The notes below the pieces were generated by a model. The model was given only the letters and a program-made list of their open reading frames with translations. It was not told the DNA's origin and searched no databases. Position numbers and translations under genes: made by a program. This document shows, piece by piece, positions 39,120 to 60,885 of a DNA stretch of 64,000 bases; within the stretch, counting starts at the first letter, position 1; each line of letters begins with the position of its first letter. Origin of the DNA: an uncultured Gammaproteobacteria bacterium (GTDB lineage Bacteria; Patescibacteriota; Microgenomatia; Levybacterales; GWA1-39-11); assembly GCA_964531275.1 (NCBI GenBank), contig CAZHDZ010000002.1, forward strand, positions 58,180 through 122,179, given 5' to 3'.

Positions 39120-39653
39120 TTATTTACTTTTGGTGACAAACATTACCATTTGTCTTCCTTCCATTTTTATATCTCGTTCTACTTTTGCTAATTCACCTAA
39201 TTTTTCAAGTACCATGTCCAACTTTTGGCGTCCTATCTCTTGATGGCCCATTTGTCGTCCTGTGAACCTGACTGAGAATTTAACCTTGTTGCCTTCAGTT
39301 AAAAATTCAGTAGCTTTTTTTAGCTTAATGTCTAAATCGTGCTCTCCGATAAAAGGTCCGAATCTGATTTGCTTTGTTTCAGATCCTTTTACTCCTTTTT
39401 TCTCTTCCTGCTTCTTTTTCTTTAGCTGATAAAGAAATTTAGAGTAATCTATAAGTTTTGCGACAGGTGGCTTAGCCAAAGGCGCTACTTCTACAAGATC
39501 GACTCCTAGTTCTTCAGCCTTTGCCAAAGCTTCCCTGATTGACAGAATGCCAATCATTTCGCCTTGATCATCAAGAACTCTCACTTCGGAAGCCCGAATT
39601 TGGTAATTCTTTCTGTAAAAGACTTTTGGTTTGAATTTATTGTTTGGTCTCAA
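39120..39653 (-). CDS. infC: Translation initiation factor IF-3.
   Basis: RPNNKF...YQIRASEVRVLDDQGEMIGILSIREALAKAEELGVDLVEV. The start is non-ATG (TTG at 39653; IF3 genes typically use rare starts). It overlaps the thrS 3' end by 17 nt. Confidence 0.85.
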   Translation of the reverse strand: MRPNNKFKPKVFYRKNYQIRASEVRVLDDQGEMIGILSIREALAKAEELGVDLVEVAPLAKPPVAKLIDYSKFLYQLKKKKQEEKKGVKGSETKQIRFGPFIGEHDLDIKLKKATEFLTEGNKVKFSVRFTGRQMGHQEIGRQKLDMVLEKLGELAKVERDIKMEGRQMVMFVTKSK

Positions 39654-40884
39654 TTTCGTTTTGAATTTGTTTGATAAATTCTTTTATCTCGAGTTGTCCG
39701 AGATCCTTTCCTCCTCTAACTCTTACAGAAATAAATTTAGATCCGTCTTTCGACTTTTCTTCTTCCTGACCGCCTATTATACACATGTAGGGTACTTTTT
39801 GTAAAGTAGCCTCACGAATCTTGTTACCAAGTGTGTTATTTGCGTTGTCTAATTCAACTCTTATTCCCAACGATTTTAGCTCGTCATATACACTTTTTGC
39901 GTAGTCTCCGAATTTATCAGATACGGGCAAAATAGACACTTGCACTGGCGCAAGCCATACTGGAAAAGCTCCTGCGTAATGCTCTATTAAAAAAGCCATT
40001 ACACGCTCAATTGCGCCTATGGAGGATCTATGAATGACAACCGGTCTTTCTTCTTCTCCTTGCTCATTTATGTATGTTAAATTGAAGCGTTGTGGCATCA
40101 CAAAATCGTATTGAACAGTAAATGCAGTATCTTCTTTACCATTGGTATTTTTCATTTGGACGTCTATTTTCGGTCCATAAAAAGCAGCTTCATTCTCTGC
40201 CTCAACAAATTTTGCCTTACGATTTATCAGCACTTCTCTTAATGTGCTCTCTGCTTCATCCCATGAGGAGTCATCTTTAAAGTACTTCTTTTCGTCCTTT
40301 CTGTCCCCCAAAGAGAGTCTGTAATGGTAATTTTCGCCCATTTTTAGCCCAAAGGTATCAGCTATAAATTCAATGAGTGAAAGAACTGAGTCAATTTCGC
40401 TTTTTGCGTCAGCTTTGGCGGTTATTATGTGTGCATCAGCTAGGCAAAATGAGCGCACTCTTTGAAGACCCATTAATTCTCCTGACTGCTCAAAACGGTA
40501 AAGCTTTGCAAGCTCTGCATATCTGACTGGTAATTCTCTGTAGCTATGTGGTCTTGAAAGGTACAATTCGAAGTGATGCGGGCATGTCATGGGTCTGAGC
40601 ATGAACTGCTCATCTTCAATTTCAATTGGAGCGTACATCGAGTCTTTGTAGTAAGGGTAATGCCCTGATTTTTCATAGAGCTCTATTTTTGCTATGTCAG
40701 GAGTGTAGACATGCAAATAATCTCGTCTAATTTCTTCATCTACAATAAATCGCTCTAATTCTCGTCTGATAACTGAGCCCTTAGGTGTAAAAAGAGGAAG
40801 CCCCTTTCCTACTGTGTCTGAAAATGTAAATAATTCCAACTCTTTTCCGAGGCGTTTGTGGTCATTGGGTGCTAATTCATCCAT
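39637..40884 (-). CDS. thrS: Threonine--tRNA ligase, truncated form: catalytic core plus anticodon-binding domain only (415 aa).
   Basis: MLRPMTCPHHFELY and a class II core. The N-terminal TGS and editing domains (~220 aa in canonical ThrRS) are absent. Directly upstream is only a 73-aa membrane ORF. Confidence 0.85.
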   Translation of the reverse strand: MDELAPNDHKRLGKELELFTFSDTVGKGLPLFTPKGSVIRRELERFIVDEEIRRDYLHVYTPDIAKIELYEKSGHYPYYKDSMYAPIEIEDEQFMLRPMTCPHHFELYLSRPHSYRELPVRYAELAKLYRFEQSGELMGLQRVRSFCLADAHIITAKADAKSEIDSVLSLIEFIADTFGLKMGENYHYRLSLGDRKDEKKYFKDDSSWDEAESTLREVLINRKAKFVEAENEAAFYGPKIDVQMKNTNGKEDTAFTVQYDFVMPQRFNLTYINEQGEEERPVVIHRSSIGAIERVMAFLIEHYAGAFPVWLAPVQVSILPVSDKFGDYAKSVYDELKSLGIRVELDNANNTLGNKIREATLQKVPYMCIIGGQEEEKSKDGSKFISVRVRGGKDLGQLEIKEFIKQIQNEIETKQ

Positions 40885-41762: not shown

Positions 41763-42125
41763 CTAGTGGTTTGTGATAAGTGGGTCGCCACTTGATACAT
41801 GAAAATGCAGATGTTTTGAATCCTGATATTTGCCTAAATTTGTTAAGATTCTAGCCTCTCCATATTCTTGTTCAACTTTTTTTGCAATCATTTCAACAAT
41901 TTTTAACAATTCCGTAATTATTTCATCATCTCCCTTATTCCTATTCGTAAATGATGGTATATGTTTTTTGGGAATTACTACAATATGAACTGGCCAAGTT
42001 GGGCGGGTATGATGAAAGGATAAAAAAGAATCGTCTTCATACTCAATCTTAAATGACTTGGTATCTTTGAGGGCAATATCACAATAAAAGTCGGCGCCGG
42101 TATATGGGGAATCTTGTGTGTTCAT
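41763..42125 (-). CDS. HIT-family (histidine triad) nucleotide hydrolase.
   Basis: HLHFHV histidine-triad motif near the C-terminus. 120 aa. Confidence 0.8.
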   Translation of the reverse strand: MNTQDSPYTGADFYCDIALKDTKSFKIEYEDDSFLSFHHTRPTWPVHIVVIPKKHIPSFTNRNKGDDEIITELLKIVEMIAKKVEQEYGEARILTNLGKYQDSKHLHFHVSSGDPLITNH

Positions 42126-42130
42126 AATCT

Positions 42131-42300
42131 ATTGTGGACCCAAGAGGACTCGTTCTGCAACGCAGTGCGAAGCACAATCTGACCTAAAGTATCACGCTCA
42201 ACATGTGATTATTGTGGACGATACAGAATTCGAATCTGTGACCTTTACAATGTCAATGTAACGCTCTACGATTTGCAAAGCAAATTGAGTGCTCCAGCTG
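42131..42300 (-). repeat. Two degenerate partial copies of the tRNA-Val 3' region directly downstream of the intact gene.
   Basis: 42212-42300 retains the D-stem 3' side, an identical anticodon arm (TTACATTGACATTGTAA), and a T-arm and acceptor 3' side (ACAGATTCGAATTCTGT, ATCGTCCA) with compensatory changes, but has no matching acceptor 5' strand. 42135-42152 is an exact 18-nt copy of the T-arm/acceptor 3' end (CGAGTCCTCTTGGGTCCA). All three copies are followed by CAAxA. Confidence 0.6.
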
Positions 42301-42309
42301 AGCTTTTTG

Positions 42310-42384
42310 TGGACCCAAGAGGACTCGAACCTCTGACCTTTACAATGTCAATGTAACGCTCTAACCAAACTGAGCTATGAGTCC
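42310..42384 (-). tRNA. tRNA-Val (anticodon GAC).
   Basis: Minus-strand GGACTCATAGCTCAGTTTGGTTAGAGCGTTACATTGACATTGTAAAGGTCAGAGGTTCGAGTCCTCTTGGGTCCA folds as a cloverleaf with anticodon loop TTGACAT. CCA is not encoded. Confidence 0.8.
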
Positions 42385-42492
42385 GTATATTCGACTCAGA
42401 AACTAAGTTTCGTGGGTCCATACGAGAATCTAATTTTAACAAATAATTGAGGCTAAGACAATCAAATGGATCATCTTACTTCTCTGAAACAA

Positions 42493-55262: not shown

Positions 55263-55368
55263 GTGCCCGAGAGAGTGGTTCGACAGGCTCACCATTTGAA
55301 AAGAGTTCTTAATAAGTGCCCGAGAGAGTGGTTCGACAGGCTCACCATTTGAAAAGAGTTCTTAATAA
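55263..55368. repeat. 53-bp tandem repeat (2 copies), each starting with the last 12-13 nt of tRNA-Leu(TAG).
   Basis: GTGCCCGAGAGAGTGGTTCGACAGGCTCACCATTTGAAAAGAGTTCTTAATAA occurs twice (55263, 55316) and abuts the tRNA 3' end at 55369-55371. Confidence 0.85.
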
Positions 55369-55370
55369 GT

Positions 55371-55453
55371 GCCCGAGAGAGGACTTGAACCTCCACACCA
55401 TTACTGGTACTAGTTCCTAAAACTAGCGTGTATACCATTTCACCACTCGGGCG
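55371..55453 (-). tRNA. tRNA-Leu (anticodon TAG).
   Basis: Anticodon loop TTTAGGA and a long variable arm. Acceptor pairs GCCCGAG/CTCGGGC. Confidence 0.8.
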
Positions 55454-55574
55454 TATCATAGTTGCCGAGTGTAGTGATCACTCGGGCAAAAAACTCAGCC
55501 ATATGGCCGTAAGGGATATTATAACTTAAAAAACGGAGAATTTTAATCACCAACCACTAGCCACCAACCACCAA

Positions 55575-56990: not shown

Positions 56991-57050
56991 AAACTGATAT
57001 ATAATAATTTTGATTTGCCCGGATGATCGCTACATCCGGGATGAAAGTTG

Positions 57051-57136
57051 GCCCGGATGGTGAAATGGTATACACGCAGTGTTCAGAACGCTGTAAGGCA
57101 AGCCTTGTGGAGGTTCGAGTCCTCTTCCGGGCACCA
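57051..57136 (+). tRNA. tRNA-Leu (anticodon CAG), CCA encoded.
   Basis: Anticodon loop TTCAGAA and a long variable arm. An upstream hairpin at 57017-57040 repeats the tRNA 5' nine nt GCCCGGATG. Confidence 0.8.
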
Positions 57137-57241
57137 AGCTTTGCTTGGTGTAACCTCAGCTTAGCTGAGGCACACTATATAGGCATTCCTTTGCTCGCAA
57201 AAAAGATGGTTTGAGTCCGAGTTTCTCCCTGCCCCAGATGT

Positions 57242-60237: not shown

Positions 60238-60313
60238 GGGTCCTTAGCTCAGCTGGTAGAGCGCTTCATTTACACTGAAGATGTCAGGGGTTCGAGCCCT
60301 CTAGGGCCCACCA
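60238..60313 (+). tRNA. tRNA-Val (anticodon TAC), CCA encoded.
   Basis: GGGTCCTTAGCTCAGCTGGTAGAGCGCTTCATTTACACTGAAG... with anticodon loop TTTACAC. Confidence 0.8.
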
Positions 60314-60377
60314 AGCTTAGCTTGGTGTTAGGTCAGCTTAGCTGACCCACCATCAGGCAAAGTAGTTTGACCAGTAT

Positions 60378-60450: not shown

Positions 60451-60673
60451 CAAAAAAAGTGCATTTTTTTGCACAAAATTGAAATTTAAATAGTTAGCCA
60501 CGCCTTGCGATGGTTAACAAAAGGTGTATACAGAACACCTGCGGCGGTGGCGAAAGTCATATTGAAAATTAAAGAAAAGTGCGACGGTGAGCGGAAGGTG
60601 TTATAAAATGCACCTGCGGCGGTGAGAACCTTGCTTTTAGCAAGGACCTCGCCACCACAAAATTGAAAATTTT

Positions 60674-60745
60674 GCGGCGGTAGTTCAGTGGTAGAACGCT
60701 TCCTTGCCAAGGAAGAGGTCGCCAGTTCAAGTCTGGTTCGCCGCT
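60674..60745 (+). tRNA. tRNA-Gly (anticodon GCC).
   Basis: GCGGCGGTAGTTCAGTGGTAGAACGCTTCCTTGCCAAGGAAG... with discriminator U. Confidence 0.8.
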
Positions 60746-60885
60746 CATCACACTTTCTCTGGCATACCGCTCGCCCTGTCCGCTCAGCGGACTGCTACGC
60801 AGCACACCGAAGGTCTCGCCGCTTATAAGCCTCTTTCCTCTTGTTTTTGACTGTCATTTTTCATATCCTAGACTTTACTACTCCT

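Follow-up and report, generated by a model that had tools for sequence, protein, structure and literature searches.

Duplicated ends of tRNA genes are routinely taken as the footprints of integrases, and Williams (2002) is said to have described the att-site duplications that result from integrase insertion into tRNA genes. At the E. coli tyrT locus, Egan & Landy (1978) and Rossi et al. (1981) reportedly found 3.14 tandem repeats of 178 bp, each with the last 19 nt of tRNA-Tyr. In fungal mitochondria, free-standing endonuclease genes reportedly insert at the 3' ends of genes together with a foreign copy of the gene end, Allomyces atp6 being an example that Paquin et al. (1994) are said to have given. 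The integration of mobile genetic elements (MGEs) is the textbook source of tRNA fragments (PMC9897764). SegB of phages T4/T6 is a free-standing GIY-YIG homing endonuclease encoded in a tRNA gene cluster, which recognises a motif of the TpsiC loop, cuts inside tRNA genes and spreads with the flanking tRNA DNA; it drives a tandem amplification of tRNA segments that depends on recombination, and is linked to many tRNA isotypes across phages (PMC2330249; PMC13096335). In the Candidate Phyla Radiation (CPR), insertions that encode GIY-YIG proteins and are not recognisable introns have been reported in rRNA genes (PMC11270868). Here, a 64-kb stretch of contig CAZHDZ010000002.1 (the window) was analysed around its tRNA-Val(GAC) gene, which is followed by two partial tRNA copies.

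The intact gene and the two partial copies, proposed in an initial annotation of the sequence, were recovered by ARAGORN, Rfam and a repeat search. We conclude with high confidence that the fragments in the window are inert pseudo-tRNA pieces which arose by recombination at the ends of tRNA genes, and neither att sites nor a second gene. tRNA-Val(GAC) is the only working gene at the locus and the two downstream pieces are inert, as are the end-copies beside the other tRNA genes. The initial annotation was right that these are non-functional duplications of tRNA ends from a recurrent process, and its wording of an unusual tRNA-end-copying process comes close to the comparative data, which point to tiny GIY-YIG genes lodged at tRNA genes; its other proposal, an integrase scar, did not hold up. 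Protein matches put the window in Patescibacteria (CPR), among the Microgenomates (Levy-, Davies-, Gottesmanbacteria).

The tRNA-Val(GAC) locus

ARAGORN called seven tRNA genes in the window. The tRNA-Val(GAC) gene is encoded on the minus strand, where downstream means lower coordinates (Table 1). Its acceptor stem is GGACTCA/TGGGTCC with a T5-G68 wobble, and the CCA end is not encoded. Read along the minus strand, the 3' end of the gene is followed by AAAAA and then by the first partial copy, named psi1. The 30-mer that is identical between the two corresponds to tRNA positions 22-51, after which the T-arm and the acceptor 3' strand have diverged; the T-arm of psi1 is well formed and runs into an acceptor 3' strand ATCGTCC. 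The secure homology of psi1 covers 42214-42268, equivalent to tRNA positions 22-76. Its extension to 42304, giving ~91 nt in total (~89 nt in the initial annotation), hangs on the 7-mer AGCTCAG at 42298-42304, which alone has p = 0.08. The hairpin of the 25-nt insert in psi1 has a stability like that of shuffled sequences (z = -0.7).

A second functional tRNA-Val gene should have a complete cloverleaf with a 7-bp acceptor stem, and psi1 does not form one. The Rfam tRNA match at 42221-42285 (minus strand) scores 31 bits against a gathering score of 29 and covers model positions 6-65 only, and ARAGORN makes no call at psi1. The 5' acceptor strand is missing, as had been annotated: GGACGAT would be needed and is absent from the sequence. 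psi1 does clear the Rfam tRNA threshold, and similar fragments will inflate tRNA counts in CPR genomes and suggest false prophage att sites. Such repeats also fragment short-read assemblies at tRNA loci.

The third copy is exact, as had been claimed, with a length of 21 nt instead of the 18 nt first given. It runs from T-loop position 56 to the tRNA's 3' end plus 2-3 flanking nucleotides, and exact matches of 21 nt are expected 0 times in shuffles. The distance from psi1 to the 21-mer is 61 nt, and that from the end of tRNA-Val(GAC) is 156 nt, most of which is psi1. The third copy ends 6 nt ahead of the ATG of a HIT gene at 42125, leaving an 11-nt leader past the pseudo-discriminator. CAA(A/T)A follows the tRNA, psi1 and the third copy alike, so that the shared junction of the initial annotation is present. 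The spacings of the units are 95 and 80 nt and the units are dissimilar, with no single head-to-tail period.

Table 1. Positions of the tRNA-related features in the window (64,000 nt).
Feature	Position	Strand	Basis or remark
Intact tRNA-Val(GAC)	42309/42310-42384	minus	ARAGORN; Rfam RF00005, 70.3 bits, full model
psi1, 5'-truncated homolog of tRNA-Val(GAC)	42214-42304	minus	Exact 30-mer and diverged 3' part
Insert of psi1, AGCACTCAATTTGCTTTGCAAATCG, 25 nt	42269-42293	minus	Replaces the 3' part of the D-loop (alignment)
Third copy, exact 21-mer CGAGTCCTCTTGGGTCCACAA	42132-42152	minus	Repeat search; also found in Logan contig L001
Possible degraded body of the third copy	42153-42202	minus	Colinear with the tRNA; p = 0.16 against shuffles
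Leader GGACCCA, possible remnant 5' fragment	42413-42419	minus	Sequence; inverted repeat with the third copy
Putative sigma-70-like promoter, TTGTCT-17-TAAAAT with TG	42433-42461	minus	Consensus match only
Two 53-nt tandem units, 100% identical	55263-55368	minus	Downstream of tRNA-Leu(TAG); repeat search
Leader hairpin GCCCGAGTG-ATCACTA-CACTCGGC	55464-55487	minus	Acceptor-stem minihelix copy of tRNA-Leu(TAG) (55369-55452)
Leader hairpin GCCCGGATG-ATCGCTA-CATCCGGG	57017-57040	plus	Copies the acceptor stem of tRNA-Leu(CAG) (57051-57136)
Trailer of tRNA-Leu(CAG), two hairpins	57132-57173	plus	Repeat search
Trailer of tRNA-Val(TAC), two hairpins as after tRNA-Leu(CAG)	60309-60352	plus	Fold z = -5.5
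Two upstream copies of the first 8-9 nt of tRNA-Gly (GCGGCGGTG)	60541-60624 (at 60541 and 60616)	plus	Repeat search

The copies were initially described as decaying copies of the tRNA's own 3' half, and psi1 does not fit this description. Its T-stem is ACAGA/TCTGT against AGAGG/CCTCT in the resident gene, so that two base pairs are changed on both sides, and 8 of 31 positions differ from the tRNA. The acceptor strand ATCGTCC is the native strand of tRNA-Val(GAC) in another CPR contig (L108), while the resident GGACTCA/TGGGTCC type is also found at the orthologous locus of two relatives (L084 and L082). Because of the double compensatory T-stem changes and the acceptor strand native in L108, psi1 is a fragment of a different, once-functional allele. 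The 30-nt identity is a core common to many CPR tRNA-Val genes. In a further contig (L133, 934-1074), two overlapping tRNA-Val(GAC) predictions were observed, the second of which begins at the D-stem right after the 3' end of the first gene and has compensatory changes in the anticodon and T stems relative to it, a pattern as in psi1.

Three colinear extensions of the copies are suggestive only. The possible body of the third copy reads, in order, GTTGAGCG (~positions 19-26), 9 nt where the anticodon arm would stand, AGGTCAGA (positions 45-52) and a 25-nt insert at the T-loop, a layout that resembles the 3' pseudo-copy of contig L214 (positions 20-28, a hairpin and positions 46-76). The leader GGACCCA perfectly complements the 3' acceptor strand and is the same as the 5' acceptor strand of the L082 tRNA-Val; together with the third copy it forms a long-range stem in both the minimum free energy (MFE) and the centroid fold. 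Taken singly, AGCTCAG, GTTGAGCG...AGGTCAGA and the leader GGACCCA are non-significant, with p = 0.08-0.25. A split, permuted or intron-bearing tRNA completed by this leader was considered and rejected, since psi1 would need the absent GGACGAT and the leader match is non-significant. An outer split tRNA enclosing an inserted tRNA, as suggested by L084, found no statistical support in the window.

Transcription from the putative promoter would start ~35 nt 5' of tRNA-Val(GAC), as predicted from its consensus match. No intrinsic terminator was found in the region of tRNA-Val(GAC) and HIT. The threonyl-tRNA synthetase ORF (open reading frame) at 39637-40884 on the minus strand encodes 415 aa, against 590 aa in L082 (12650-14422), and, as called, starts past the N-terminal editing/TGS region.

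tRNA end-copies in the window and in related genomes

The same phenomenon had been annotated at three other tRNA loci, and it was found to be broader than that. Five of the seven tRNA genes of the window, namely tRNA-Val(GAC) and four more, carry copies of their own ends with the right polarity, that is, 5' pieces upstream and 3' pieces downstream. Each 53-nt unit behind tRNA-Leu(TAG) joins a 19-nt spacer to a 34-nt copy of the 3' part of the tRNA, with a scrambled T-arm and an exact match over the last 13 nt. The motif TCTCTCGGGCAC occurs 3 times against 0.13 expected, and the single-period, high-identity tandem pattern (53 nt x 2, 100%) is seen at this locus. At both the Val(GAC) and the Leu(TAG) copies the divergence is a mosaic, in which exact blocks stand beside scrambled blocks. 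Ahead of tRNA-Gly (60674-60746), each of the two 5' copies opens a unit of ~75 nt; GCGGCGGTR occurs 3 times against 0.16 expected, always at the tRNA-Gly locus.

The two tRNA-Leu genes are preceded by hairpins made of the first 9 nt of their own tRNA and the complement, 25-26 nt upstream, with the loop ATC(A/G)CTA. The hairpins co-vary with their tRNAs and are stable, with -10.3 kcal/mol (z = -3.7) at Leu(TAG) and -13.2 kcal/mol (z = -3.9) at Leu(CAG). By their sequence, these leader minihelices may be tRNA copies with an internal deletion, or else substrates of the RNase P type. The trailers of tRNA-Leu(CAG) and tRNA-Val(TAC) both re-use the CAC(CA) end. In the former (-22.4 kcal/mol, z = -5.3), hairpin 1 pairs the CACCA end of the tRNA itself with TGGTG, and CAC follows hairpin 2. 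In the latter, hairpin 2 is compensatory (CCTCAGC/GCTGAGG to GGTCAGC/GCTGACC) and a second CCCACCA stands at the end. An alternative long hairpin at 60316-60362 suggests mutually exclusive folds of this trailer. After tRNA-Phe (60452-60487, plus strand), the 3' end GCAC-AAAA appears again behind the A7/T7 hairpin GCACAAAAAAAGTGCATTTTTTTGCACAAAATTG, and the 16-mer CACAAAATTGAAA(T/A)TT recurs just ahead of tRNA-Gly at 60656-60671. Elsewhere, the window's first 24.7 kb are taken up by one ORF of 8,234 codons (77-24781, plus strand); CPR and related groups are known to have giant ORFs like this.

The M20 peptidase that adjoins tRNA-Val(GAC) has its best relatives at 57-68% identity, and the synteny of peptidase and tRNA-Val is kept in four contigs (L084, L082, L087 and L002). 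The initial annotation named an intact second tRNA gene in related genomes as the finding that would overturn it, and none was seen: L082, L087 and L002 have a single clean tRNA-Val, and L084 has one together with fragments. In this closest relative (L084/L085), a 5'-like fragment lies upstream of tRNA-Val and a tRNA-3'-like fragment downstream. The tRNA-Val(GAC) gene is inverted in L082 (11080-11154) and L002 (11086-11160) relative to the window (42309-42384) and L084 (1629-1706). Between L082 and the window, the orientation of tRNA-Leu(CAG) also differs and extra genes (MBOAT and 299 aa) are inserted; tRNA genes mark synteny breaks between these genomes.

Another 78 loci came from a metagenome scan with the generic tRNA-Val(GAC) core. 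The survey set comprised ~700 kb of CPR contigs with 146 tRNAs that have full flanks, and a direct copy of the tRNA's own end of at least 10 nt within 250 nt was scored. Copies of the right polarity were carried by 18 of the 146 tRNAs (12 with 5' copies upstream and 6 with 3' copies downstream), as against 1 and 0 cases of wrong polarity, where ~0.7 per class is expected by chance. When the survey was restricted to copies that include acceptor sequence, 13 cases remained. In the non-CPR control, 0 of 38 tRNAs in 1.35 Mb had such copies; this control consists mostly of Chloroflexi loci from the M20-peptidase profile search of genome contigs, and is useless for synteny. Rfam found only tRNAs in the window and eight related loci, and matches to HPnc0260, ycf2 and tmRNA_permuted were discarded as sub-threshold echoes of tRNA sequence. 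In L100 and L121 (40-260 nt downstream of tRNA-Val(GAC)), and also in L134, there is an inverted copy of the last ~20 nt of the tRNA with a direct copy 100-190 nt past it, so that a long stem is possible around a GC-rich structured insert. This layout has no Rfam match.

Nuclease cassettes and rival explanations

At several CPR loci, a small ORF between a partial copy and the intact tRNA was found to encode a GIY-YIG nuclease (Pfam 1e-17). These ORFs have 85-100 aa and are of the stand-alone UPF0213 type (PDB 1zg2 and 1ywl), with the catalytic Y, Y-x-G, R, H and E invariant in 18 sequences. In the ~700 kb of CPR loci, all eight such ORFs (8/8) have a tRNA on the same strand at a distance of 0-32 nt, and in an independent sample chosen by protein identity 4/4 homologs adjoin tRNA-Asp, Val, Lys and Ala; all 12/12 are thus within 70 nt of a tRNA gene. 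In 3 of the 4 independent-sample ORFs the stop codon is the TAG at tRNA positions 8-10. ORFs whose ends lie in the following tRNA's 5' acceptor strand, with U8-A9-G10 (TAG) as stop, are seen in L214 (1501-1767), L219 (1501-1809), L225 (1501-1770) and L140 (5759-6043), and other copies start 0-2 nt past the 3' end of a tRNA or pseudo-tRNA (L142, L147, L138). Such borders imply, as far as sequence can tell, that the ORFs would be expressed from tRNA promoters and by tRNA processing. In L219, a called gene of 267 aa (600-1403) with a faint LAGLIDADG_3 match overlaps the tRNA-Leu(GAG) region upstream of the GIY-YIG/tRNA-Val cassette, and may be a second endonuclease type at tRNA loci. In our literature search, no paper was found that describes tRNA-linked mini GIY-YIG cassettes in CPR.

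Partial tRNA copies bracket the GIY-YIG ORFs in seven contigs (L214, L219, L225, L226, L140, L138 and L142). The order of a cassette is a 5' copy of the tRNA (positions 1-13 up to 1-28), a hairpin, positions 46-56, the ORF and the intact tRNA. The hairpin is often GTCCGATGnnCATCGGAC, which exactly replaces the anticodon arm; otherwise hairpins lie in the D-loop. A 3' pseudo-copy often follows, which in L214 has the composition given above and in L219 is a bare, exact 21-nt copy from T-loop to 3' end, like that of the window. Tandem cassette units occur in L140, and a foreign-type pseudo-tRNA-Val, like psi1, in L142. Units with the same signature hairpins and no ORF are present in L110, L124 and L138. 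These hairpins fall within 450 nt of tRNAs in 20 of 25 cases, against 18% of bases, and the same inserted hairpins recur beside tRNAs of differing isotypes and genomes.

Two lines of evidence, namely the shared architecture and the orthologous locus of L084, link the window to these cassettes. The junctions of the cassettes lie in the D-loop, at the base of the anticodon stem or at T-loop positions 54-56, and those of the window fall there too: position 56 in the third copy and the D-loop in psi1, compared with 54 in L219, 56 in L214, 55/56 in L226 and the D-loop in L225/L150. The arrangement of 5' pieces upstream and 3' pieces downstream is common to the window and the ORF-bearing loci. In L084, the fragment downstream of the orthologous tRNA-Val carries the 16-mer CCTGAGGCGACAGGTC, which in L138 holds the stop codon of the GIY-YIG ORF. 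A tRNA-linked GIY-YIG cassette as the trigger is therefore the best-supported mechanism, which we infer for this window, and the fragments are tentatively explained, at a little under even chances, as ORF-less recombination scars of such cassettes.

According to this mechanism, cassettes with a stand-alone, UPF0213-like GIY-YIG gene of 85-100 aa would lodge directly against tRNA genes. The nuclease would break a conserved tRNA segment, in the D-loop, at the base of the anticodon stem or in the T-loop, and the break would be repaired by recombination with another tRNA-linked copy, for which conserved tRNA motifs would serve as short homology arms. The outcome would be an intact tRNA with partial copies, 5' pieces upstream and 3' pieces downstream, often with unrelated inserts at the junctions and sometimes with a stretch of donor (foreign-type) tRNA carried along. 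Unequal recombination between the resulting direct repeats would give exact tandem units, and the nuclease ORF would be lost by deletion. The window would represent the end state, with psi1 as the donor-type fragment, a 21-mer that begins at T-loop position 56 and no ORF left. If so, a nuclease that cuts conserved tRNA motifs would drive duplication, and the mini-nucleases are predicted to cut tRNA-gene DNA at the T-loop, the D-loop or the anticodon-stem base. The mechanism would also account for the changed orientation of single tRNA genes and for their place at synteny breaks in these genomes.

Several observations weigh against the cassette origin. No GIY-YIG ORF or coding relic was found in the 64-kb window with hmmsearch --max and tblastn, and the tblastn matches to GIY-YIG in the window are translations of tRNA sequence only. 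The signature hairpin CCGAT-N-ATCGG (the GTCCGATGnnCATCGGAC type) and the TGA-loop motif GTCGCC-TGA-GGCGAC both have 0 matches in the window, and the two 25-nt inserts of the window fold no better than shuffles and are unrelated to the signature hairpins. AGCTCAG, AGGTCAGA and the leader GGACCCA, the singly non-significant elements described above, are needed for the cassette grammar. To our knowledge, UPF0213 proteins have no DNA-binding domain, and we know of no cleavage specificity or mobility shown for them. Most partial copies in the relatives are also without an ORF, which leaves room for an origin independent of a nuclease.

A broader reading, to which we give roughly one chance in three, is that CPR bacteria (Microgenomates and neighbours) host undescribed selfish elements. 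These would be mini GIY-YIG genes fused to tRNA genes, which ride tRNA promoters and processing, use pseudo-tRNA scaffolds with a hairpin for the anticodon arm and hop between isotypes via D- and T-loop homology arms. In that case the genome of the window would be a graveyard in which most tRNA genes have ORF-less scars, some of which (leader minihelices, trailer hairpins) may be co-opted for precursor processing.

The main rival of the cassette origin is duplication without any nuclease, which is rather unlikely, at about one chance in four. Either a spontaneous tandem duplication with one end in the tRNA (P-A-B-S to P-A-B-S-B-S) or the collapse of a small array by internal deletions would be followed by decay. 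Selection that tolerates only duplications with one intact copy would suffice for the polarity seen in the CPR survey; exact tandem units are found not only in the window (53 nt) but also in L110 and L124 (82 and ~100 nt), the CAA(A/T)A flank recurs after every Val(GAC) copy, and the lack of a nearby ORF at most partial copies and of a nuclease gene in the window is what such a process would leave. On the other hand, psi1 is no local copy, given its two double compensatory T-stem changes and its foreign-type acceptor, and the mosaic of exact and scrambled blocks is not that of uniform decay. The inserted hairpins that recur across isotypes and genomes point to transferred sequence, and neither the non-CPR control nor clean relatives such as L082 show the phenomenon.

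The scars of tyrosine-integrase elements (phage or island) at the tRNA 3' end, of attL/attR type and with the cargo eroded later, were the first interpretation of this locus, and are improbable, at about one chance in eight. MGE integration is a documented common source of tRNA gene fragments (PMC9897764), and the 21-mer is a direct repeat of a tRNA 3' segment that reaches beyond the 3' end, spanning from T-loop to flank the position of a classic att core. The genes downstream of tRNA-Val vary among the relatives (HIT and HD in the window, others in L084 and L082), and foreign-type tRNA segments are typical of attP arms. However, no integrase, recombinase or transposase turned up when 34 ORFs across the window were scanned with Pfam, and none of the ORFs tested in L120, which has a 12-nt 3' copy 3.4 kb downstream, was found to be an integrase. 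Instead of kilobases of foreign cargo, only 156 nt separate the repeats. Upstream copies of tRNA 5' ends are no rarer than 3' copies. An integrase would leave a functional gene with an element-derived 3' part and displace the host's original 3' part, whereas here the gene is native-type and the fragment foreign-type. The integrase reading is thus unsupported, because there is no recombinase, the spacing is 156 nt, and upstream 5' copies and exact tandem units occur. The ancient excision that had been invoked for the missing cargo does not help, as precise excision removes the duplication rather than leaving it.

Exact searches gave no phage or plasmid attP as the source of the fragments: the T-arm/acceptor part of psi1 and the 3' 20-mer of the tRNA had 0 matches in 2.9 M viral contigs, and psi1 had 0 matches in metagenomes. 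The generic tRNA-Val core matched only jumbo-phage tRNA arrays in the viral contigs, in which the H-hairpin pseudo-tRNA also had 0 matches.

Slightly less probable still, at one chance in ten, is that the fragments, whatever their origin, are kept for work at the RNA level, as tRNA-like processing or terminator signals (RNase P/Z entry sites, 3' stabilisers) that part the tRNA from the HIT mRNA, like the t-elements of plant mitochondria. The third copy ends just before the HIT start codon in a region with no intrinsic terminator, GIY-YIG ORFs in relatives start directly past tRNA or pseudo-tRNA 3' ends, pairing between the leader and the third copy is possible in the predicted fold (z = -2.9), and the Leu and Val(TAC) genes have leader and trailer hairpins of very high stability that co-vary. 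Against such a role, psi1 and the third copy are conserved in no relative, no two of the flanks of L084, L110, L163 and the window are alike, clean relatives do without fragments, and psi1 has no acceptor stem, which RNase P and RNase Z need.

Lastly, a mis-join at repeats in the metagenome-assembled genome (MAG), with a single tRNA as the true locus, is very improbable: in the Logan re-assembly of SRR12762304 the contigs do end exactly at the 30-nt repeat, so that the junction from tRNA to psi1 is seen in the MAG assembly only, but L086 (leader and tRNA 5' part) and L001 (psi1 3' part, third copy and HIT gene) are each contiguous independently, psi1 is distinct from the tRNA at the 8 of 31 positions noted above, and analogous architectures occur in many unrelated assemblies.

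Comparison with known systems

The tandem units of tyrT, as reported, start within the 3' end of a tRNA and run downstream, as do the 53-nt units after tRNA-Leu(TAG). tyrT differs in being one locus with a uniform period, and it leaves psi1, the upstream 5' copies and their frequency across tRNAs unexplained. Insertions of the kind described for Allomyces atp6 are alike in that an endonuclease-linked insertion duplicates the end of an essential gene and yields a native-plus-foreign mosaic with a displaced fragment; they differ in having protein-gene targets, organellar genomes and much larger ORFs.

Integrase att duplications (PMC9897764) share with the window an intact tRNA, a partial direct copy with the 3' end and foreign-type segments, and there, too, a partial copy can pass the thresholds of tRNA finders. 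In contrast to them, the window has no integrase and no kilobase-scale cargo, and it has 5' copies upstream, short exact tandem units and a foreign-type fragment beside a native-type gene. The CPR rRNA insertions (PMC11270868) come from the same radiation and likewise place GIY-YIG ORFs in conserved RNA genes; their targets are rRNA genes, and tRNA is unmentioned.

SegB offers a mechanistic precedent, by analogy, for the tRNA-linked CPR nucleases, even though the two differ in several respects. SegB has ~220 aa, carries a DNA-binding domain and is phage-borne, whereas the CPR genes encode 85-100 aa, have the catalytic domain only and are chromosomal. Unlike SegB, the CPR ORFs overlap the tRNA (stop TAG, positions 8-10) and are accompanied by pseudo-tRNAs in which a hairpin takes the place of the anticodon arm, and the similarity of the CPR GIY-YIG proteins to phage homing endonucleases is weak (phrog_314, E ~1e-4; TIGR01453, below cut-off). 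Of the two, only phage SegB has a known cutting activity on tRNA genes. Unlike the SegB locus, the window is without a GIY-YIG gene. The likeness lies in the setting and in the products: the CPR GIY-YIG genes are also found among tRNA genes, the exact copy in the window starts in the T-loop, and tandem units are present. The cassette origin, if true, would mean that the SegB paradigm applies not only to phage tRNA clusters but also to chromosomes of streamlined bacteria.

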